Source: Alphaproteobacteria bacterium
GTDB lineage: Bacteria > Pseudomonadota > Alphaproteobacteria > MPNO01
Length of the DNA: 64,000 bases
Direction: 5' to 3'
Assembly: GCA_964291675.2 (NCBI GenBank)
Contig: OZ219865.1
Location: 32,001 to 96,000, forward strand
Below, in pieces: positions 3,136-31,366 of the stretch. A model generated the notes under the pieces. That model saw only the letters and a list, made by a program, of their open reading frames with translations, did not search any database and was not told the DNA's origin. Positions within the stretch are counted from its first letter, which is position 1. Each line of letters starts with the position of its first letter. Made by a program: the position numbers and the translations under genes.

Positions 3136-4347
3136 TCAGGCGGCGAATTTGAGGTCGAGGCGGCCCCACACGTCCTGCAGCGCCGCGACGAGCCGGTCCA
3201 TCGCCTCGTCGTCGTGCAGCGGCGTCGGGGTGAGCCTCAGCCGTTCCGTCCCCTTCGGCACGGTCGGGTAGTTGATCGGCTGGACGTAGATCGCGTGGCG
3301 CTCCATCAGCGCATCCGTCACCTGCTTGCAGCGCACCGCATCGCCGACGAAGACGGGCACGATATGGGACGGCGAGGGCATCGCCGGCAGCCGGGCCTGG
3401 CGCAGCTTCGCCTTGAGCGTGCGGGCGCGCTCCTGGTGGCGCTCGCGCAGCTCGCCGGCCGCGCTCACATGGCGGATGCTGGCCCGTGCGCCGGCGGCGA
3501 TGGCGGGCGGCAGCGAGGTGGTGAAGATGAACCCGGCGGCGTGGCTCCTGATGTAGTCGACCATCGCGGCGGAGCCCGCGATATAGCCGCCGACGACGCC
3601 GAACGCCTTGGCGAGCGTCCCCTGGACGATGTCGATCCGGTGCATCGCGCCGTCGCGCTCGGCGACGCCCGCGCCGCGCTCGCCGTAGAGCCCGACCGCA
3701 TGGACCTCGTCGAGATAGGTCATCGCGCCGTGCGCCTCGGCGACGTCGCAGATTTCCGCGATCGGGGCGAAATCGCCGTCCATCGAGTAGAGCGATTCGA
3801 AGGCGACGATCTTGGGCGCGTCCGCGTCGCACTCGGCGAGCAGCCGGTCGAGATGGTCGACGTCGTTGTGGCCAAAAATCTTCTTCTCCGCCCGGCTGTA
3901 GCGGATGCCGGCGATCATCGAGGCGTGGTTGTCGGCGTCGGAGACGATCACGCAGCCCGGCAGGGTCTGGCCGAGCGTCCCGAGCGTCGCCTCGTTGGCG
4001 ACATAGCCCGAGGTGAACAGCAGCGCGGCCTCGGTGCGGTGCAGCCGCGCCAGCTCCTCCTCCAGCAGGACGTGGTAGTGGCTGGTGCCCGAGATGTTGC
4101 GGGTGCCGCCCGCGCCGGCGCCCACCCGGTCGAGCGCCTCGTGCATCGCCGCCACCACCTGGGGGTGCTGCCCCATGCCGAGATAGTCGTTGCTGCACCA
4201 GACGGTCACCTCCTCGACCGCGCCGGCGGCGTGGCGCGCGGCCCTGGGGAAGGCGCCGGCATGGCGTTCGAGATCGGCGAATACCCGGTAGCGCCCGTCG
4301 CTTCTGAGACGCGCCAGCCGGTCGCAAAAGAATTTTTCGTAATCCAT
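3136..4347 (-). CDS. hemA: 5-aminolevulinate synthase
   Basis: MDYEKFF start, [51 protein letters not shown] (PLP lysine), ERLRLTP. Confidence 0.96.
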
Positions 4348-4378
4348 CGCCCCAGACTCTCTGCCGGGGTCCCGCCGG

Positions 4379-5767
4379 TCAGGCGAGACCCTGCTCGGCC
4401 ACAAAGCGCGCGGTGTCGTCGAGCGCCCGGCCGAACCGGGCGAGCATCTCGTCGATCTCCGCCTCGCCGATGATCAGGGGCGGCGAGAACGCGACCCGGT
4501 CGCCCAGCCCGCGGACGATCAGCCCGTGCTCCTCGGCGCGTCCGGCGAGATAGGCGCCGAGCTTCGCTGCCGGGTCGAAGGGCCGCGCGGTCACCTTGTC
4601 GGCGACCAGCTCGACGACCCCGACCAGGCCGATCCCGGCGATCTCCCCGGTCAGCGGATGATCGGCGAAGGCGGCGAGGCCGTCCTGGAGATGCGGCGCG
4701 GCGCTCGCGACCCGTCCGACGAGATCGATTTCGTCGTAGATCGCCAGCGTCTCCAGCGCCACCGCGGCCGGTACCGGATGGCCGGAATAGGTGAAGCCGT
4801 GGCCGAGCGTCCCGAGCGCGTGGCTCCCCTCGGCGATGCCGCGATAGACCTTCTCGTTGACCTGCACCGCGGCGATCGGCAGATAGCCCGACGACAGCGC
4901 CTTCGCCATGGTCATCAGATCGGGCTCCAGCCCGTAGGTCTCGGAGCCCCACATCCGCCCGGTCCGGCCGAAGCCGCAGATCACCTCGTCGACCACGAAC
5001 AACACGTCGTGGCGCTTCAGCACCTGCTGGATCTTCTCGAAATAGGTCGCCGGCGGCAGGATCACGCCGCCCGCCCCCATGACCGGTTCGGCGAAGAAGG
5101 CAGCGACGGTTTCCGGCCCCTCGGCGAGGATCAGCCGCTCCAGCGACTCCGCGCAGCGCGAGGCGAAGTCCTCCTCGCTCTCGCCATCCTTCCCCTCGCG
5201 CCAGTAATGCGGGCAGTCGGTATGCAGGAAGCCGGGGAAGGGCAGGTCGAACCCGGCATGGTTGCGCGGCACCCCGGTCACGCTCGCCGCCGCGGCGGTG
5301 ATGCCGTGATAGCCGCGCGCCCGCCCGACGATCTTCTTCTTGGCCGGGCGGCCGATGGCGTTGTTGTAGAACCAGATCAGCTTGATGGCGCTGTCGATCG
5401 CCTCCGAGCCGGAGTTGGTGAAGAAGGTCCGCGCCATCGGCACCGGCGCCAGCGCCTTGAGGCGTTCGGCGAGCTCGACCTGGGGCTCGTGGCTGCGCCG
5501 GTCGAAGCCGTGATAGAAGGGCAGGGTGCGCATCTGGCGGCTCGCCGCCTCGGCCAGGCGCTCGTTGCCGAAGCCGAGCGAGACGCACCAGAGCCCGGCC
5601 ATCCCCTCGATATACTCCTTGCCGGTCTCGTCCCAGACATAGACGCCGTCGCCGCGCGCCATGACCAGCGAGCCCTCGCGCTCGTTCTCGACCGCGTCGG
5701 TATAGGGGTGGAGCAGCGCCTGCGGGTCTCGGAACCGGTAAAGGTTCGATCGGGTCGCGGTATCCAT
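4379..5767 (-). CDS. Class III (omega-amino acid) aminotransferase
   Basis: [65 protein letters not shown]. Confidence 0.92.
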
Positions 5768-5780
5768 CGAAAAAATCCGT

Positions 5781-6839
5781 TCAGCCGCCGGTGACGCTCA
5801 TATGGCGCGGCACCGCGGGATCGCGCCGGCGCCGGTCGATGACGAAGTCGTGGCCCTTGGGCTTGCGGCCGATGGCCTCGTCGATCGCCGCCATCAGGAG
5901 GTCGTCGTCCGGGCCGGCGCGCAGCGGCGCGCGAAGATCGGCGGCATCCTCCTGTCCGAGGCACATATAGAGCGTGCCGGTGCAGGTGAGGCGTACGCGG
6001 TTGCAGGATTCGCAGAAATTGTGGGTCATCGGGGTGATGAAGCCGACCCGCCCGCCGGTCTCGCGGCAATGCGTGTAGCGCGCCGGCCCGCCGGTCGAAT
6101 AGTCGCTCTCGTCGAGGGTGAAGCGGCGCCTGAGCGCGGCGCGCACCATCGAGAGCGGCAGGTACTGGTCGAGCCGCGCGTCGCCGCCGATCTCGCCCAG
6201 CGGCATGACCTCGATGAAGGTGAGGTCGTAGCCGCGGCCGCCGCACCATTCGACCATGTCGGAGAGCTCGTCGTCGTTGACGCCCCTGAGCGCCACCGTG
6301 TTGATCTTGACCCGGAGCCCGGCCGCCTCCGCCGCCGCGAGCCCGTCCATCACCTGCTCCAGCCGGCCCCAGCGGGTGATGTCGGCGAATTTCGCGGCGT
6401 CCAGCGTATCCAGCGAGACGTTGATCCGCCTGACCCCGGCGTCGCGCAGGTCGTTGGCGAAGCGCCCGAGCTGGCTGCCGTTGGTGGTGAGCGTGAGCTC
6501 GTCCAGCGTGCCGTCCCCGAGATGGCGGCCGAGGCGCTGGATCAGCCACATTATGTTGCGGCGCACCAGGGGCTCGCCGCCGGTGAGCCTCAGCTTGCGC
6601 ACGCCGCGGCGCACGAAGGCGCTGCACAGCCGGTCCAGCTCTTCGAGGGTGAGCACCTCCGCCTTGGGCAGGAAGGTCATCGATTCCGCCATGCAGTAGA
6701 CGCAGCGGAAGTCGCAGCGGTCGGTCACCGAGACCCGGAGATAGGAGACCCGCCGGTCGAACGGGTCGATCAGCAGCGGCGATTCCGCGCCATTCCCGTC
6801 CCGGCTCGCCGATCCGTTATCTGAAACCCGATCGCCCAT
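5781..6839 (-). CDS. moaA: GTP 3',8-cyclase (molybdenum cofactor biosynthesis), start uncertain
   Basis: [18 protein letters not shown] radical-SAM motif, [18 protein letters not shown]...C second cluster, C-terminal MSVTGG. Confidence 0.95.
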
Positions 6840-21529: not shown

Positions 21530-22837
21530 TCACATCAGGCTGGGCAAGTAGAGCGCGATGCCGGGCGCCATGATCAGGATGATGATCAGGATGAGGTCGC
21601 AGAACAGGAAGGGGATCGCATAGGACGCGACCTCGAACAGCGTGGTGCCGCGCACCATGCCCATCATGATGTAGAGCAGCAGCCCGAAGGGCGGGGTGGT
21701 GGCGCTCATCTCCAGCGACATCAGCACGATCAGCGAGAACCAGATCAGGTCGTAGCCCAGCGTCTGGGCGATTGGGTAGAAGATCGGCACGGTGATCAGC
21801 ATCATCGAGACCTGGTCCATGAACATGCCGAGCAGGATCAGGACCAGGAACATCGCCGAGAGGATCACCAGCGGCGCCACCTCGAACCCGGTGGCCCATT
21901 CGGTGAGCCCGCGCCCGGCGCCCGACATCGACAAGAGCTGGCTGAACACGGTCGAGTTCATCAGGATGAAGAACACCATGCCGACCACCCGGATGGCGCC
22001 GACCAGCGAGGTCTTGAACGCCTGCCAGGTGAACGCGCGGAAGGCGATGGCGAGGATGCACACGCCGACCACCCCGAAGGACGCCGATTCCGACGGCGTC
22101 GCCCAGCCGAGCACGATAAAGCCGATCACCATGAAGACGACCAGCCCCATCGGCAGGATGTTGACCGCGACCTGGTAGAGCTTCTCCTTCCAGGTGGTGG
22201 GCTCGATGTCGTAGCTCGGCGCGGCGTCGGGGTTGATCCTGAGCTGCAAGAGGATCATCGCCGCATAGAGCGCGGCGAGCAGGAAGCCGGGCAGGAGGCC
22301 GGCGATCAGCAGCGCGCCCACGTCGACGCCGGCGATCGAGGCGAGCAGCACGCCGAGCGAGGACGGCGGGATGATCATCGCGAGCCCGCCGGTGCCGAGG
22401 ATCGGCCCCATCGACATGCGCTTGTTGTAGCCGCGCCGGGTCATCTCGGGGACCAGCAGCGAGCCCAGCATGGCGGTATTCGCCATGGTCGAGCCGGTCA
22501 GCGTCGAGAACAGCGAGCCGCCGATCACCGTCAGGAAGCAGAGCCGGCCCGGAACCTTGCCGAGCAGCTTGTCGAGCGCATCGAACACCCGGATGGCGAG
22601 CCCGGTATGGAAGAACAGCGCGCCCATCAGGATGAACATCGGGATGGGCGAGAGCGTGAACGTGGTGATGAGCTGCGGCGCGTTGTCGGCGATCTGGATC
22701 AGGTTCGACCAGCCATTGGCGAAGACGAACATGCCGAGCACGTTGGCGATCAGGAAGGTGAAGGCGACCGGGAAGCCGAGCGCCATGCCCGCCACGACGC
22801 AGCCGAGAAGAATCGCCCCTGCCTCGTACCATTCCAT
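21530..22837 (-). CDS. dctM: TRAP transporter large permease (DctM)
   Basis: IPMFILMG, GGLAMIIPPS, ATPSES, TPPFG; many TM helices. Confidence 0.92.
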   Translation of the reverse strand: MEWYEAGAILLGCVVAGMALGFPVAFTFLIANVLGMFVFANGWSNLIQIADNAPQLITTFTLSPIPMFILMGALFFHTGLAIRVFDALDKLLGKVPGRLCFLTVIGGSLFSTLTGSTMANTAMLGSLLVPEMTRRGYNKRMSMGPILGTGGLAMIIPPSSLGVLLASIAGVDVGALLIAGLLPGFLLAALYAAMILLQLRINPDAAPSYDIEPTTWKEKLYQVAVNILPMGLVVFMVIGFIVLGWATPSESASFGVVGVCILAIAFRAFTWQAFKTSLVGAIRVVGMVFFILMNSTVFSQLLSMSGAGRGLTEWATGFEVAPLVILSAMFLVLILLGMFMDQVSMMLITVPIFYPIAQTLGYDLIWFSLIVLMSLEMSATTPPFGLLLYIMMGMVRGTTLFEVASYAIPFLFCDLILIIILIMAPGIALYLPSLM

Positions 22838-22840
22838 GGC

Positions 22841-23362
22841 TCAGACGCTGTCCTTCACCTCGCCGAGATCGTAGGTGTAGTAGTGGCGCAGCCCGGCGAG
22901 ATACATCAGGAATTCGAGCCCCACCAGCCCGTAGCCGAAGGGCATCGGCAGGAACTGGAGCCAGTACGGCATGTCGATGCCGCGCACGTCGAGATTTCCG
23001 GTCTGGATGGCCTCGATGAAGAGCTCGATCGAGAGATAGGCGAAATAGAACCCGAGCACCGCGCAGACCAGATACACCCCCTTGGCCATGGGCTCGCGAA
23101 CCGCCGGCGGCAGGAAGGTGACCAGCGCCTCGATCGCCACATGCCCCTTCTCGCGCACCAGCCAGGGGGCGGAGCACATCGCCACGTAGAGCAGCGCGTA
23201 CTCCACCACCGAGGAGGTAAAGAGCGGCGGGGTGAACCCGATGGTCCTGATCGACACGTCGATCACGATCATCGTGAAGATGCACGGGATCAGCGCGCAG
23301 GCGATCCACACCAGCGCGCCGACGACCCGCCCGAGCCCCCGGTCGAACGTCTCCAGCGACAC
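22841..23362 (-). CDS. dctQ: TRAP transporter small permease (DctQ)
   Basis: 4 TM helices, DV..R, EYALL, GHVAIE. Confidence 0.88.
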   Translation of the reverse strand: MSLETFDRGLGRVVGALVWIACALIPCIFTMIVIDVSIRTIGFTPPLFTSSVVEYALLYVAMCSAPWLVREKGHVAIEALVTFLPPAVREPMAKGVYLVCAVLGFYFAYLSIELFIEAIQTGNLDVRGIDMPYWLQFLPMPFGYGLVGLEFLMYLAGLRHYYTYDLGEVKDSV

Positions 23363-23393
23363 GGCCGCTCCCGTCCCCGCCGCCCGGACCCCG

Positions 23394-24440
23394 CTATTGC
23401 CTGAGCGCGCGGCCGAGATCGGCCTGGCGGTTGGGCTTGCCCGGGATGTACATCAGCGGCAGCAGCCTGTCGTGGTACTCCGACCGTTCCTTGAGCTGCT
23501 TCCAGATCTCCCGATGCGCGATGTCGAGATAGCGCGCCGCGGCATCGCCCTTGAGCACGATGTCCTTGACGCCGGCCGCCATGACCTGCTTGTCCTCGGC
23601 CTTGCGCTCCTTCTCGATCCAGTGCACCGAGGTGGTCTCGTATTCCTTGGCGAGATCGGTCATCGCGTCCTGCTTCTCGCGCGCCAGCTTGTTCCAGGTG
23701 TCGGCGTGGACCGTCACCACGGTGTTGGTCTGGTAGTAGTTCGGCTGGATGCGGTACTTGATCACCTTGTGCACGCCGAGCGGCACGATCGAGATGTCGG
23801 TGAAGCCGAAGCCGTCGACCGTCCCGCGCTGCAGCGCGGTGAACACCTCGGACGACTTGATGTTGATGGTGGTCGCGCCGAGCGCCCGGAACAGCGGGCG
23901 GTAGGTGCCGGTGGCGCGCATCTTCAACCCGGTCAGGTCGGGCACGCCGTGCTCGTCGAACTTGGGCTCCTTCATCAGATAGGTGTTGTAGGAGGTCATG
24001 TTCTCGCCCCAGGCCAGCAGATGCGCGCCGGCCTTCTTGAGATAGATCTCCTGGAGGATCTCCCACGCCCCGTTGGCGCGCAGCGCCTTGGGGCCCTGGT
24101 TGGCGGCGAGGATCGCGTAGCCCTCGGGCACGGTGCCGATGTAGTAGGCGGTCGGGCTGTGCAGCACGTTGAACTGGCCCCGCCTCAGCGCGGTGACGGC
24201 CTTGCGCGGCGGCACGATCTCCTGACCCCCGAGATACTTGATCTCGACCTTGCCCTTGAGGTTCTCGTTGAGCGGGTTGAGATAGTTGGCCTTGAAGCTG
24301 CGCACCAGGGCGTTGTTCTGGTCGAGCGAGGTGACCGCGTTGAGCTTGTCGGTCATCGCCGCCGCCGTCCCGGCGCCCGCTGCCACGGCGGTGGCCGCGG
24401 CGAGTGCGGTGAGTGCTAATCCTGTCTTCATGTTCCTCAT
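23394..24440 (-). CDS. dctP: TRAP substrate-binding protein (DctP), paralog 1
   Basis: Signal peptide, DLTGLKMR, EVFTALQRGTVDG. Confidence 0.9.
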   Translation of the reverse strand: MRNMKTGLALTALAAATAVAAGAGTAAAMTDKLNAVTSLDQNNALVRSFKANYLNPLNENLKGKVEIKYLGGQEIVPPRKAVTALRRGQFNVLHSPTAYYIGTVPEGYAILAANQGPKALRANGAWEILQEIYLKKAGAHLLAWGENMTSYNTYLMKEPKFDEHGVPDLTGLKMRATGTYRPLFRALGATTINIKSSEVFTALQRGTVDGFGFTDISIVPLGVHKVIKYRIQPNYYQTNTVVTVHADTWNKLAREKQDAMTDLAKEYETTSVHWIEKERKAEDKQVMAAGVKDIVLKGDAAARYLDIAHREIWKQLKERSEYHDRLLPLMYIPGKPNRQADLGRALRQ

Positions 24441-24623
24441 TCCCAGTCCTGGTTCATCCTTGGTTCATCGTATGCGCGCAGGCGCGGCGGGCCGCGTCAA
24501 CGCCCCGCGCTGTCGATACCGACAATGGCCGGCCGGCGCAATGACGGGTTGCAGCCCGATTGCGACCGGTCTCCCTTCCACGCCGTTCTCGAAAATCCGG
24601 GGACGCGGCCTGCCGGCAACCGC

Positions 24624-25658
24624 CTATTTGCGGAGCGCGCGCCCGATATCGACCTGGCGGTTGGGCTTGCCGGGGACGTACATCAGCGGCTTGAGCTTGT
24701 CGTGGTATTCCGACCGCTCCTTGAGCTGCGTCCAGATCTCCTGGTGGGCGATGTCGAGATAGCTCGCCGCCGCGTCGCCCTGGAGCGCGATGTCCTTGAC
24801 CCCGGCGGCCAGCATTTCCTTCTCTTCCTTGGCGCGCCGCGCCTCCAGCCACTTGACCGACTCGGTCTCGTAGGTCAGCGCCTGCTTCTCCAGGAACGCC
24901 TTCTGCTCCTTGGTCAGCGAGTCCCAGACCTTGGGATTGACCGTCAGCACCTGGTTGGTCTGGTAGAAGTTGGGGGTGATCCGGTACTTGACGATCTTGT
25001 GCAGCCCGAGCGCCACCACCGCCACGTCCGGCCAGCCGAAGCCGACGACCGTGCCGCGCTGGAGCGCGGTGAAGATCTCCGACGACTTGATGTTGATCGT
25101 GGACGCGCCGAGCGCGCGGAACAGCGGCCGGTAGGTGCCGGTCGCGCGCATCTTCAGCCCCGTCAGGTCCGGCACGCCGTCGGCGCGGAACTTGGGCATG
25201 ACCATCAGATAGGTGTTGTAGGAGGTCATGCTCTCGCCCCAGGCCAGCAGATGCGCGCCGGCCTTCTTCATGTAGACCTCCTGGAGGATCTCCCAGGCGC
25301 CGTTCTTGCGCAGCGCGCGCGGCCCCTGGTTGCCGGCGAGCAGCGCATAGCCCTCGGGGACGGTGCCGATGTAGTACGCCGTCGGGCAGCTCAGCATGTC
25401 GAACTGGCCGCGCTTGAGCGCGTTGGCGGCCTTGCGCGGCGGCACCACCTCCTGGCCGCCGATATACTTGATCTTCACCGGGCCGTTGGCCGCGTTGCTG
25501 GCGTTCAGATAGGTTTCGATGAAGGCTTTCGCGATGGTGTTGCTGCGCTGCAGCGCGGTCACCGCGCCGAGCTCGTCCTTCGCCGATGCCGTCGACATCG
25601 CCGTCGCCAGCGCCGCCGACGCCGTCGCGAGGGCGATCAGGACCCTGTATGGTTTCAT
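24624..25658 (-). CDS. dctP: TRAP substrate-binding protein (DctP), paralog 2
   Basis: Start MKPYRVL with signal peptide; DLTGLKMR, EIFTALQRGTV; highly similar to 23394..24440. Confidence 0.9.
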   Translation of the reverse strand: MKPYRVLIALATASAALATAMSTASAKDELGAVTALQRSNTIAKAFIETYLNASNAANGPVKIKYIGGQEVVPPRKAANALKRGQFDMLSCPTAYYIGTVPEGYALLAGNQGPRALRKNGAWEILQEVYMKKAGAHLLAWGESMTSYNTYLMVMPKFRADGVPDLTGLKMRATGTYRPLFRALGASTINIKSSEIFTALQRGTVVGFGWPDVAVVALGLHKIVKYRITPNFYQTNQVLTVNPKVWDSLTKEQKAFLEKQALTYETESVKWLEARRAKEEKEMLAAGVKDIALQGDAAASYLDIAHQEIWTQLKERSEYHDKLKPLMYVPGKPNRQVDIGRALRK

Positions 25659-25867
25659 TCCGGTTCTCCCTTCCTGGACCGCGCGGCGGCGGTTCAGCGA
25701 ACGACCGCCGCCGCGCAGTGCGAGACTCCCTTGGATAGCTTTGGTTTTTTCGCCGCCATGCTGGCCAAGCGGCCCGGTTTCGTCAACACCCAAGCGCGGC
25801 TCGATTGCGCCCGATTCGCGGCCTCGCCATAATCCCGGCGCGTGGTAGTCCGCCGGGGAAACAGCCG

Positions 25868-28227: not shown

Positions 28228-28342
28228 CGTCATGCCCGGACTCGATCCGGGCACCCACCGGCTCCCGCGGCGAACCGGCATGGATGGCCGGAACAGGTCC
28301 GGCCGTGACGTAGTGGGGGAACGGAGGGCGTATCGAGGGACG
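28228..28342. repeat. CGTC-type REP-like inverted pair plus half-unit, second copy
   Basis: CGTCATGCCCGGACTCGATCCGGGCACCC ... GGATGGCCGGAACAGGTCCGGCCGTGACG ... GCGTATCGAGGGACG. Confidence 0.78.
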
Positions 28343-28424
28343 CTCTCGGCCATATGACGGGCGGGTTTCGGCCCCGCGCCGCCCCGGCTACGCTGGGCCC
28401 GGCAATAGTCTAGGAGGCCGCGCC

Positions 28425-28852
28425 ATGCCGACCGCCGGGAAGTCGCCCGTGATCCCGACGATGCGCTACCGCGACGCCCCCGCCGCCATCGACTGGCTGT
28501 GCCGGGTGTTGGGCTTCGCCCGGCACCTGGTGGTGCCCGGCGAGGACGGCACGATCGCCCACGCCCAGCTCGTCCTCGGCTGCGGCATGATCATGCTCGG
28601 CAGCGTCGCGACGACGCGCACGGGCGGCTGATGGCGGTGCCGGGGCCGAACGGCGCCAACACGCAAGCCGCCTGCCTCGTGGTCGACGACGTGGAAGCGG
28701 TCCACCAGCGGGCGCTCGCCGCCGGGGCGGAGATCGTAACGCCGCTCGAAAACCCGGAATACGGCGGCAGCTTCTTCGCCTGCCGCGACCCCGAGGGCCA
28801 TGTGTGGAATATCGGCTCCTACGACCCGTGGGCGGATCACGAGGGAAAGTGA
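28425..28852 (+). pseudogene. VOC/glyoxalase-bleomycin resistance family gene with a single frameshift
   Basis: N-half (YRDAPAAIDWL...HAQL...IMLGS) in ORF 28425..28631, C-half (VDDVEAVHQRA...YGGSFFACRDPEGHVW) in ORF 28499..28852; one base missing near 28605-28610. Confidence 0.8.
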
Positions 28853-28882
28853 TCGGTGATGACCCGGCGGCACCGAACCTAT

Positions 28883-28897
28883 GTTCGAATTCCGTTC
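28883..28897 (+). promoter_or_regulatory. Candidate alphaproteobacterial LexA (SOS) box GTTC-N7-GTTC
   Basis: GTTCGAATTCCGTTC in the intergenic region about 110 bp upstream of the ATPase start. Confidence 0.5.
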
Positions 28898-29005
28898 TGC
28901 TTCTTCGCGCCGTGGACGCTAGAGAGGTCCGGGCGATCGAATACAGTAGACGAATAACGGGATACCGTATTCGAATGACAAAAGTTCCGCTGGACCGGTT
29001 CTGAA

Positions 29006-30163
29006 ATGGTGGATCGCATACAGGCGAAGAATATCGGACCGGTGCGCGAAGCCGATATCCGTTTTGGCGACCTCACGATATTCGTCGGGCCGCAGGCGAC
29101 GGGAAAGAGCATTTTCCTTCAGCTGCTCAAGCTGTTGGTCGACAGACCGTCGATCCACGCCACGATGCGGCATTTCGGCCTTGCACAGCCGGGCGATGCG
29201 GAAGGTTTCTTCGATCTGTATTTCGGCGAGGGAATGGCGTCGATCTGGCGTAGGTCGAAGAGTCGTTTGGTCCTGGGGAAGGCGAGGAAGCAGACAGACC
29301 TGGCTACCTATGCGCGCCCGGGCAAGTCCAACAAAGCGGAATCGATGTTCTACATCCCTGCACAGCGGGTGATGAGCCTGCGCGACGGGATGACCCGTCC
29401 CTTCACCGACTATCGGGCGGGCGATCCCTTCGTCCTGCGCGACTTCAGCGACAAGCTGCACTGGATCGTGCAATCCGAGATCGGTCTCGACGAGGATGTG
29501 TTTCCGCGCCCGAACCGTTTGGCCGCGGTGCTGCGGAGACCGCTCGAAGAGCACATTTTCGGAGGGTTCGGGCTGCGCACGGATACCTCTGCGCACCAAC
29601 GCCGCCTCGTTCTGAAGTCGGGCCACGGCCGTCCCTTGCCTTATCTCGTGTGGTCGGCTGGGCAACGCGAATTCGTTCCGCTGCTGCTGGGCCTCTACTG
29701 GCTGTTGCCGCCGGGAAAAGCGCCCCGCCGACAGGAACTCGAATGGGTCGTGATCGAGGAACCGGAAACCGGACTGCATCCGAACGGCATCGGCGCGGTC
29801 CTGAACTTCGTCATGGAACTACGGATGCGCGGATACCGCGTCTGCCTTTCCACGCATTCTCCCCATGTCCTCGACATCGTCTGGGCGCTCCGCTTCATGC
29901 AGGACAACGCCGGAATGACGAACGATGTCCTGAGACTTCTGGGCCTCCGCTCGGCAGCGAAGACCCGGCAACTCGCAGACGAAGTGCTTAAGAGCGATTT
30001 CAAGACCTACTATTTCGCGCGAAGCGGGACTGTGCACGATATTTCCGACCTCGATCCGGGCGCGGAAGACATCGCCGAGGGCGGATGGGGCGGGCTCACC
30101 GAGTTCTCCGGCCGGGTGGGCGATATCGTCGCCGAAGTCGCCAACCGCAACGGCGCCTCATGA
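29006..30163 (+). CDS. ABC-type ATPase of the AAA_15/AAA_21 (AbiEii-like) class
   Basis: NIGP, Walker A GPQATGKS, FYIPAQR, signature WSAGQRE, Walker B/D-loop VVIEEPETGLHP, H-loop STHSP; no TM partner. Confidence 0.88.
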   Translation: MVDRIQAKNIGPVREADIRFGDLTIFVGPQATGKSIFLQLLKLLVDRPSIHATMRHFGLAQPGDAEGFFDLYFGEGMASIWRRSKSRLVLGKARKQTDLATYARPGKSNKAESMFYIPAQRVMSLRDGMTRPFTDYRAGDPFVLRDFSDKLHWIVQSEIGLDEDVFPRPNRLAAVLRRPLEEHIFGGFGLRTDTSAHQRRLVLKSGHGRPLPYLVWSAGQREFVPLLLGLYWLLPPGKAPRRQELEWVVIEEPETGLHPNGIGAVLNFVMELRMRGYRVCLSTHSPHVLDIVWALRFMQDNAGMTNDVLRLLGLRSAAKTRQLADEVLKSDFKTYYFARSGTVHDISDLDPGAEDIAEGGWGGLTEFSGRVGDIVAEVANRNGAS

Positions 30164-30639
30164 CCTTCCAACAGGCTGTCGAGGCCGCGTCCGATCCGGT
30201 GAGCGGCAATTTTCGTCCGGGCAAACAGGCCCTGACGAACCAGCACCGAAGACTGGTGACTTGCGCCGATCCGCAACGGCTGACGGGTAGCATCGATCTC
30301 GACGCCGCGCTTGCTGCGGAACGGGCCTACGCTGGCGACCCACGGTGGGACTACGGCCTCGGCTATAGGCCAGTGACAGGACGGGAACAGGCAATATGGG
30401 TCGAAGTCCACTCCGCGACGACAGGCGAAGTTTCGGCGGTCCTCAATAAGCTGCGATGGCTGAAGGACTGGCTAAACGGAGAAGCCGAACAGCTAAGGCG
30501 GCTAACCGACCGGACCGGCGAAGACGTTCGCTATGTGTGGATCGCGAGCGCAGGCGTGAAGATCACAAAGAATTCTCCGCAAGCCAGGAGGCTCAGCCAG
30601 AGCGGCCTTCGTTTGGCGAAAGATCTGGCCTTGCCTTAG
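30160..30639 (+). CDS. Hypothetical 159-aa partner of the ATPase, possible PD-(D/E)XK-like nuclease
   Basis: ATGA overlap with the ATPase stop; PRWDYGLGY...AIWVEVH pattern. Confidence 0.7.
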   Translation: MTFQQAVEAASDPVSGNFRPGKQALTNQHRRLVTCADPQRLTGSIDLDAALAAERAYAGDPRWDYGLGYRPVTGREQAIWVEVHSATTGEVSAVLNKLRWLKDWLNGEAEQLRRLTDRTGEDVRYVWIASAGVKITKNSPQARRLSQSGLRLAKDLALP

Positions 30640-30701
30640 CCATAGCCGGTGAGCGCGTAGGCCGGGACCGCCGGAGCGGCCCCGGCCGGATGCGCGAGCG
30701 C

Positions 30702-31196
30702 TCAGCGCCGGTAGCGGCCGCGCTTGGACAGCAGGTCGTCGATCCTTGCGCGCTGTTCGTCGTTGAGCTTGCCGTAGAGGTCGACGAAGGCGGGGCGGAC
30801 CTCCTGGACCACGCCGAGCGCGGTGACGAGCGCGAGCTCGGCGCGGGCGAGGTGCTGCGGCGCCTGGGCGGGGCGGCCCTCGGCGGCGACGGTCTCGCAG
30901 GCCTCGCCGATCCTGGCGCTGCCGCTCCTGACCGCGCCGGTCAGCGCCTGCCACGGCCCGGCCTGGTCGGGGGTGAAGTCGACGAACGCCTCGACGAAGC
31001 GGATCGTATCGTCGATCCGTGCGTCGCGGCTTGCGCTGCAGATCCGCGACTCCGCATGGCCGCTCCAGCCGTGCCCGCCGCCGCGCCAGCCCCCGTGGGC
31101 GAAGGCGCCGCCCGGCCCGGCGGCGAACAGGGTGACGGCGACCAGCGCGACGGCGCCGAGCGACGATATCGAGACGATCAGGGTTCGGCGTTTCAT
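30702..31196 (-). CDS. Spy/CpxP (LTXXQ) family periplasmic protein
   Basis: Signal peptide, Gly/His-rich linker, FTPDQ and LNDEQRARID motifs; divergent from a two-component system. Confidence 0.82.
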   Translation of the reverse strand: MKRRTLIVSISSLGAVALVAVTLFAAGPGGAFAHGGWRGGGHGWSGHAESRICSASRDARIDDTIRFVEAFVDFTPDQAGPWQALTGAVRSGSARIGEACETVAAEGRPAQAPQHLARAELALVTALGVVQEVRPAFVDLYGKLNDEQRARIDDLLSKRGRYRR

Positions 31197-31366
31197 GGCT
31201 TCGATCCTTTTTCGGTTGCATCGACCGCACCGATATGGCGCCGCCCGTTTGCCCGCGTGTTTCGCCGGAGGGGAAGATTTGTAACGAAGCGTTGCAGGTC
31301 GCCGTGCGGCAACGCCCGGTTACGAATTTCCGCCGCCCCGCCACGGGGCGCCCCTATAGTCCGCCG

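Follow-up and report, generated by a model that had tools for sequence, protein, structure and literature searches.

The DNA examined here, called the window throughout, is a 64,000-nucleotide stretch of contig OZ219865.1 (assembly GCA_964291675.2, positions 32,001 to 96,000) from an alphaproteobacterium. Between metabolic and regulatory genes it carries a compact two-gene cassette, in which gene A encodes a stand-alone ATPase of the ATP-binding cassette (ABC) type and gene B a small partner that is probably a nuclease. Both match the two halves of a candidate defence entry of the PADLOC database, PDC-M56, and we propose that they may form a defence module of the ATPase-gated kind. The cassette comprises the following features.

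28853..29005, plus strand: intergenic region upstream of gene A, presumed promoter and leader
29006..30163, plus strand: gene A, 385-residue soluble ABC-type ATPase, PtuA-like, matching PADLOC PDC-M56A
30160..30163, plus strand: ATGA start/stop overlap, read in the sequence; translational coupling
30160..30639, plus strand: gene B, 159 residues from the ATG at 30160, matching PADLOC PDC-M56B, putative PD-(D/E)XK-like nuclease effector
28836..30700, no strand: segment whose divergence from syntenic relatives greatly exceeds that of its flanks, giving the limits of the exchanged cassette allele

A two-gene cassette of foreign composition

The TGA stop codon of A (30161-30163) overlaps the ATG start codon of B to give ATGA, and the two frames together encode 544 residues. 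An earlier reading of this DNA, the original prediction, had described two coupled reading frames of 385 and 159 residues joined in this way, and the overlap can be read directly. It had begun the module at 28879, which lies 127 nucleotides 5' of the start codon of A; no plus-strand gene begins there, and the position is the end of a 77-residue antisense open reading frame that we take to be spurious. The motifs that it quoted are present in A (GPQATGKS at residues 28-35, SAGQ at 217-220, IEEPETGLHP at 250-259 and STHS at 282-285) and in B (PRWDYG at 61-66 and WVEVH at 80-84), and they are more than chance resemblances, because residues within them are invariant in 48 aligned A and 133 aligned B sequences.

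The composition of the pair differs from that of its surroundings. GC content at third codon positions (GC3) is 0.759 in A and 0.681 in B, compared with 0.907-0.963 in 12 neighbouring genes, and overall GC content is 0.59-0.63 over 29000-30500 compared with roughly 0.66-0.75 around it. An earlier remark that the pair favours A/T-ending codons was therefore correct, with both genes lying below all 12 neighbours. This composition makes the pair look like a horizontal acquisition. A search on either side for the direct or inverted repeats that an insertion might leave found none.

Gene A resembles the ATPase of Septu

Pfam assigns only generic domains to A, AAA_21 (1.4e-16) and AAA_15 (1.5e-12), and searches of NCBIfam and PHROGs returned weak ATPase matches only. 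Across the alignment of 48 A proteins from related loci the ABC motifs are complete and invariant: G28-x4-G33-K34-S35, Q120, S217-x-G219-Q220, E251-E252, G256-L257-H258 and H284, which on the textbook scheme we take to be Walker A, Q-loop, signature, Walker B with the catalytic glutamate, D-loop and H-loop. Residue by residue, the invariant positions are G28, Q30, A31, G33, K34, S35, Q120, S217, G219, Q220, E251, E252, E254, H258, T283, H284 and S285. The C-terminal part is also conserved in this alignment, including W361-G362-G363.

An AlphaFold (AF2) model of A, with a predicted local distance difference test score (pLDDT) of 89.8 and a predicted template-modelling score (pTM) of 0.91, gave 132 Foldseek matches at E<=1e-3, with template-modelling (TM) scores of 0.35-0.45 and 12-16% identity. 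The best of these were PtuA chains of retron I-A and Septu (E values of 1.8e-7 to 1e-6, probability 1.0), followed by Rad50/SMC heads. A profile of A searched against PDB sequences retrieved the OLD-family ATPase 6p74 (1e-10), GajA and PtuA 8ee4 (both about 2e-6; 2.4e-6 for 8ee4) and the retron Ec78/Ec83 ATPases, all confined to the half between the signature and the H-loop. Going by the model, A is a compact ABC ATPase of PtuA-like type whose relationship to PtuA is limited to the core, and neither Pfam nor the model places an effector domain of its own within the 385 residues.

Gene B is probably a divergent restriction-endonuclease-like protein

B belongs to a large family (347 clusters when grouped at 90% identity; 864 representatives when grouped at 50%, with E<=1e-3), in which only a few members are named, and those as "hypothetical protein." It matches no Pfam family, and none recurs across 133 aligned members even at E<=10; at that threshold there is neither an HNH nor a TOPRIM domain in B or its relatives, as had been predicted. 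NCBIfam and PHROGs give nothing for B. PDC-M56B, by contrast, is matched by 133 of the 133 family members, with nothing else of note. The description of a stand-alone ABC ATPase with complete motifs beside a small partner of no known family is supported. Invariant in the 133 sequences are S44, D64, E82, H84 and K97; near-invariant are F3, G21, A24, G43, D48, W63, Y65, G68, A86, W100, L101, W127 and G149.

The AF2 model of B is confident (pLDDT 97.7, pTM 0.92) and comprises a strand (41-46), a helix (47-52), two strands (65-69 and 77-87), two helices (88-108 and 110-117) and a further strand (125-134). D64 stands directly before strand 65-69, E82 and H84 lie in strand 77-87, and K97 lies on helix 88-108. 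This predicted order of elements, and the placement of D64 and E82-x-H84, fit the PD and (D/E)xK sites of the PD-(D/E)XK superfamily. B departs from that superfamily in having histidine at the lysine position, with an invariant lysine, K97, on the next helix instead; in having helix 47-52 between the first two strands; and in lacking a match to the Pfam clan, a significant structure match or a PDB sequence match. The weak fold matches in the PDB are mostly to PD-(D/E)XK proteins (MUS81, FokI, Cdn1, MspI, SwaI, EndoMS, Card1, BamHI, MspJI, XPF, HamA and Hjc), as are those in BFVD (VRR-NUC, UL24, ERCC4, endonuclease I, Mrr and DUF2726). The nearest named cluster in the ESM Atlas is PDDEXK_11, whose score of 0.77 falls below the 0.9 line and makes it a lead only. 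The suggestion in the original prediction of a PD-(D/E)XK core with histidine in the lysine position thus gains from element order, residue placement and the weak fold matches, and stops short of proof, the best match having an E value of only 0.06. On the model, B probably has a restriction-endonuclease-like core and is a nuclease, and we read it as divergent enough to count as an undescribed family.

B might instead be a non-enzymatic adaptor or sensor, with A or a host factor providing the output and the S-D-E-H-K set binding a ligand or a metal. Such a role would suit the absence of a significant nuclease match by sequence or fold and the replacement of the canonical catalytic lysine; it would also suit the faster evolution of B, which is 67-70% identical where A is 79-87% identical and which has longer end branches, as a recognition subunit might. 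The five invariant polar or charged residues nonetheless occupy PD-(D/E)XK active-site positions, the weak matches in two separate structure libraries are mostly to nucleases of that superfamily, and A has no effector domain with which to supply an output, so that we consider an adaptor role quite improbable.

Two longer database proteins contain B. One (P0210) runs from the N-terminal ~215 residues of A into B, probably as the result of a frameshift read-through. In the other (P0239), only the last two thirds of B are present, preceded by an unrelated N-terminal part that is rich in helices. No fused B was found among proteins of 280-2000 residues, although that search is itself weak evidence.

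Known ATPase-effector systems and catalogue status

The pair has the ATPase-plus-effector kind of architecture seen in Gabija and in Septu and PARIS, the last two of which the original prediction had named, and the model of A is closest to PtuA. With Septu, including the PtuAB of retrons I-A, Ec78, Eco7 and Ec83, it shares the two-gene layout of a stand-alone ATPase followed by a nuclease, a putative one in the case of B. The structural match to PtuA spans the ABC core only, however, at the low TM scores and identities given above, and A is shorter, at 385 residues compared with chains of ~450-550. PtuB is an HNH nuclease, whereas B has no HNH domain by Pfam and a different predicted fold, and no Septu model stands among the 25 listed of the 83 PADLOC families matched.

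PARIS, Gabija and OLD have ATPases of the same AAA_15/AAA_21 type, and PADLOC models of AriA (2e-17 and 1.5e-13), Old (2.2e-11) and GajA (~3e-8) match A, but only over short stretches round Walker A or Walker B. Pfam finds no TOPRIM or DUF4435 domain in A or B, and the window holds no UvrD-type helicase partner as in Gabija. The pair is also distinct from an ABC transporter, since no permease adjoins it and the nearby TRAP transporter (21530-25793) belongs to a different, ATP-independent class. Two HEC-02A models match A, at 2.1e-9 and 6.3e-8, the latter over residues 1-286, with scores far below that of PDC-M56A. B has no match to the HEC-02 partner or to Pfam NERD, a domain of the PD-(D/E)XK superfamily. 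HEC-02, an ABC ATPase with a NERD protein that was found embedded in Hma and validated, resembles A and B in coupling an ABC ATPase to a small nuclease-related partner; it is one of the validated pairs of ABC ATPase with NERD, PIN or TOPRIM proteins (HEC-01 to HEC-03) presented in 10.1101/2024.01.29.577857.

The closest catalogue entry is PDC-M56. Its A model matches gene A at 2.6e-141 (469 bits; residues 3-380 on profile positions 2-379 of 382), and its B model matches gene B at 3.9e-45 (residues 2-157 on profile positions 7-149 of 151). The original prediction had called the module undescribed; both proteins match PDC-M56A/B over their full length, as neighbouring genes with the strand and order of that pair, and these matches mean that the pair is not uncatalogued. 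No sequence-level difference separates it from the PDC-M56 pair. The difference is one of setting: the entry is a pair of hidden Markov models for a candidate drawn from defence-embedded genes, and the copy in the window is embedded in no defence system. As set out in 10.1101/2024.01.29.577857, the PDCs are 145 untested "guilt-by-embedding" candidates, some of one gene and some of several, taken from genes found inside BREX, DISARM or type I restriction-modification (RM) loci; "M56" is absent from the main text of that paper. Passages on the PDCs in PMC12881386 and PMC12988326 describe most of them as lacking validation. The pair, then, is catalogued but not described.

The two genes travel together

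We scanned species-representative genomes with a 30-sequence alignment as query, which returned 79 loci. In 78 of them the gene immediately upstream of B, and co-directional with it, is A; in the remaining one the contig ends 172 nucleotides upstream of B. Where both genes were found, 51 of 76 loci have the 4-nucleotide overlap (43 as ATGA and 8 as GTGA). Six loci have A split into two open reading frames (L018, L028, L031, L053, L060 and L064).

Very little else is shared. DNA similarity between the window and non-syntenic loci starts at 29003-29063 and never extends beyond 30615, and is thus confined to the coding regions. We compared up to four neighbouring genes per side using a home-made gene caller seeded on A and B, which reproduced the Pfam-supported genes of the window, can miss genes and did miss B in the window. 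The 532 neighbouring genes fell into 405 clusters, and as 341 of these were singletons, context is not conserved except in a single synteny group, made up of the window and L005/L006, L009, L014, L017 and L036. Trees of A and B were built from 34 rows, the window with 33 of 40 close loci, omitting L005 (a duplicate), L018, L028 and L031 (split A) and L026, L035 and L036 (truncated genes). Both recover the same subgroups, including cross-phylum clades: for example, cassettes from Binatia and Thermodesulfobacteriota (L015, L016 and L020) form a clade in each tree with SH-aLRT support of 97-99, which, like other subgroups, points to transfer between phyla.

L005 and L006, both on record OZ242200.1, do not differ in their scores or, for 12 kb or more, in their neighbours, reflecting either a large duplication or an assembly artefact. 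In L003, a second, degenerate A-B copy (3238-5887) lies ~4.5 kb upstream of the intact one.

Distant relatives are built into defence operons

We ran Pfam on representatives of two genes per side (130 proteins, then 75) and PADLOC on 115 neighbours of 20 loci that were hand-picked for large or unannotated neighbours. In the close clade, comprising the 39 loci whose B is at least 56% identical, there are scattered transposases (near L004, L007, L013, L015, L018, L022 and L028) and a few toxin-antitoxin-type genes (near L021, L031 and L074). In more distant loci the pair often forms part of a defence operon, and defence models were matched in 12 of the 20 loci given to PADLOC (L046, L049, L050, L052, L053, L054, L055, L057, L060, L065, L073 and L075), with the following arrangements.

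L073, 5667-16704: type III methylase (2.6e-179), A-B, Res-like helicase, UvrD/PD-(D/E)XK protein
L052 and L055: type III methylase in the surroundings
L053: A-B immediately preceded by a DrmMI or type IIG methylase
L057: type IIG enzyme, then A-B, then a pair of PDC-S01 genes and an HKD-Snf2 protein
L075, 2054-13695: A-B inside a type I-E CRISPR-Cas operon, flanked by cas8e and cas7e
L050: HsdR and PDC-S02 upstream
L046: A-B flanked by PDC-M05A with PDC-S05 and, on the opposite side, by DarT with DarG
L060: DRT reverse transcriptase and PDC-M41A
L065: EcoRV-type RM pair
L049: DruE-like fragment
L054: PD-T4-6 four genes away

In L073 there are stop/start overlaps on both sides of A-B within the type III RM-like operon. 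The embedding in defence islands that the original prediction led one to look for is therefore seen in distant members, within RM and CRISPR operons, and not in the window, whose copy lies in no island. As a separate observation, L075 also carries a second, different AriA/NsnB-like ATPase with a 212-residue partner between cas3 and cas8e.

These contexts bear on whether the cassette is instead a selfish addiction unit of the toxin-antitoxin kind, in which B would be a toxic nuclease that A neutralises, so that loss of the cassette kills the cell and no dedicated anti-phage role need exist. Much about the cassette would fit: it is a compact, translationally coupled two-gene unit; its DNA similarity across unrelated genomes stops at the coding regions and it carries no recombinase; its insertion sites are scattered among housekeeping genes, as the singleton neighbour clusters indicate; related cassettes occur across phyla; and toxin-antitoxin genes are frequent neighbours (L021, L031, L044/45, L062 and L077). 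A 385-residue ABC ATPase with every catalytic residue invariant would nevertheless be an atypical antitoxin, and the distant members sit in RM and CRISPR operons with overlapping frames. Toxin-antitoxin behaviour and abortive infection are, moreover, compatible, so that addiction is partly the same model as defence. As an account of its own we think it unlikely, although it deserves somewhat more credit than the adaptor role.

Divergent cassette alleles at one chromosomal site

The synteny group offers a comparison in which the chromosomal site is held constant. L017 is the syntenic relative closest to the window. Between the two, proteins of the flanks are 90-99.6% identical, compared with 83.6% for A and 67.3% for B, and the B of L017 is no closer to that of the window than are B proteins from other phyla. 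Synonymous divergence (dS, Nei-Gojobori) is 0.89 in A and 0.98 in B compared with 0.10-0.15 in four flanking genes, although the base composition of the cassette may inflate these dS values somewhat, the two effects being inseparable here. Since the excess is found at synonymous sites, faster protein evolution cannot explain the divergence. The ratio of nonsynonymous to synonymous divergence (dN/dS) against L017 is 0.12 for A and 0.23 for B, and it ranges from 0.12 to 0.18 and from 0.17 to 0.23, respectively, indicating that purifying selection has kept both genes functional. The other four syntenic relatives show the same pattern of divergence; one row, M20 against L014 (dN 2.18), is an alignment artefact and was ignored.

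The limits of the diverged segment are sharp. Nucleotide identity to L017 is ~90-95% up to ~28820, 52-92% per 100-nucleotide window over A and B, and 96% from ~30720, and a sliding alignment places the limits at ~28836, inside the last codons of the upstream VOC/glyoxalase gene, and at ~30700. In the tree of A, five syntenic copies form one clade (SH-aLRT 99); the tree of B neither supports nor rejects a syntenic clade (support 0). The most economical reading of these sequences is that old, divergent alleles of the cassette have been exchanged by recombination through the conserved flanks, and we prefer such exchange within the lineage because of the single syntenic A clade. Independent re-insertion at the same site was also considered and is disfavoured by that clade, with the B tree undecided.

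The leader of A (28853-29005) cannot be aligned with those of syntenic relatives; alignment to L017 and L014 collapses, with gaps of ~75 nucleotides, and the leader in the window is longer than theirs by about that length. Within its 153 nucleotides the 12-nucleotide word TTCGAATNCNGT occurs at 28884-28895 (plus strand) and 28964-28975 (minus strand), where chance predicts 0.02 occurrences in the whole window; a near copy lies at 28937-28947. The word is absent from all 80 loci, and may represent an operator or what is left of a small insertion. We found no sigma-70 promoter or intrinsic terminator consensus in 28300-31300, and the predicted fold of the leader RNA is not unusual (z -1.64).

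The same comparison speaks to a housekeeping role in DNA repair or recombination, in which A would be a Rad50/SbcC-like protein working with a nuclease in genome maintenance. Rad50/SMC heads do appear among the Foldseek matches of A, close relatives lie beside a DinB-type polymerase (L001), PolA (L025) and TopA (L027), and purifying selection is strong. A maintenance module would hardly be expected to show foreign codon usage, to be spread patchily across phyla among neighbours that are not conserved, to exceed its flanks 6-9-fold in synonymous divergence within one syntenic lineage, or to be embedded in RM and CRISPR operons; and the 385-residue A has no Rad50-like coiled-coil insert. We regard this role as very improbable.

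A candidate ATPase-gated nuclease module

We propose that the pair is an intact, horizontally acquired member of PDC-M56 acting as an ATPase-gated nuclease defence module, with a probability that we would put at roughly 0.58. The support for a defence module comes from the invariant motifs and the fold of A, the confident model of B with its weak matches to PD-(D/E)XK proteins, the linkage of A and B, family membership, purifying selection, and the embedding of distant members in RM and CRISPR operons.

By analogy with better-known pairs, we infer for B a nuclease activity and binding to A, and for the module a trigger, a substrate, a stoichiometry and protection from phage. A, as a soluble ABC ATPase of the PtuA/GajA/OLD type, would be the sensor and gate, and B, made by coupled translation, the effector. 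In B, D64 and E82 would hold a metal ion, with H84 in the usual place of the lysine and K97 contributed by the following helix. A would oligomerise and hold B as in Septu (PtuAB), and its binding or hydrolysis of ATP would keep B inactive until phage or other mobile DNA is sensed. B would then cut nucleic acid, either DNA or, as is now reported for Septu, a tRNA, and this cutting would stop the invader or the infected cell. Cleavage of tRNA-Tyr by Septu and retron-Eco7 PtuAB is reported in passages of PMC13096335 and PMC12673091.

Several findings weigh against this proposal. On the side of the catalogue, PDC-M56 is a candidate only, and under several spellings it was found in no paper's main text. 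On the side of the effector, a profile of B found no match among PDB sequences, Foldseek returned 0 matches at E<=1e-3 in the PDB or BFVD (best E 0.063, TM 0.2-0.36), and histidine stands at the lysine position of the putative active site. On the side of context, no known defence genes lie beside the pair in the window; the close clade sits mostly among housekeeping and metabolic genes (for example AspRS, PolA, TopA and ribosomal proteins); a search of the phage collection for the family gave no match, and one of plasmids gave a single match, CP007054.1; and the 20 loci given to PADLOC, being chosen by hand, are not a random sample, and even so include six with no defence match (L020, L024, L040, L043, L048 and L062) and two with generic matches only (L041 and L042).

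A bolder version of the proposal would make B a new restriction-endonuclease-fold family with a rebuilt active site (D64, E82, H84, K97, S44 and Y65), gated by a PtuA-like ATPase and cutting RNA, for instance a tRNA, instead of DNA, and would have old alleles swapped at one site under balancing selection outside defence islands. Taken as a whole we hold this to be a tentative idea and rather unlikely, if the least unlikely of the alternatives discussed here. If true, the swapping of alleles at one fixed chromosomal site would be a balancing-selection signature on an immune gene.

Returning to the gated defence module, pairs of an ABC ATPase and an effector (Septu, Gabija, PARIS and HEC-01 to HEC-03) make up a major class of bacterial immunity in which the effector defines what is destroyed. 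What is new here is the combination of a PtuA-like ATPase with a B of confident, unmatched predicted fold and five invariant polar residues, encoded by inseparable genes that in distant members are embedded in RM and CRISPR operons, together with one clade that stands alone among housekeeping genes and whose alleles diverge far more than their flanks. At 544 residues the pair is a small, well-defined target for a possibly new nuclease chemistry, and copies such as the one in the window would escape any scan confined to defence islands.

Surroundings of the cassette

Upstream of the pair lie a TRAP transporter, TauD, an M20 peptidase and the VOC/glyoxalase gene, and downstream an LTXXQ protein, an OmpR-type regulator, a histidine kinase and enzymes of the aromatic-catabolism type. 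These metabolic and regulatory neighbours agree with the earlier statement that the pair sits among unrelated metabolic genes without a permease: neither an ABC permease nor an integrase was found next to it, and no tRNA gene was found in the 64-kb window. The VOC/glyoxalase gene (28425-28852) is split over two frames by a 1-nucleotide deletion near 28615 relative to the intact 148-residue orthologues of L017 and L014, and is either a pseudogene or the product of a sequencing error. Farther upstream, and unrelated to the pair, two tandem paralogous genes for TRAP solute-binding (DctP) proteins lie at 23394-25793 beside dctQ and dctM.

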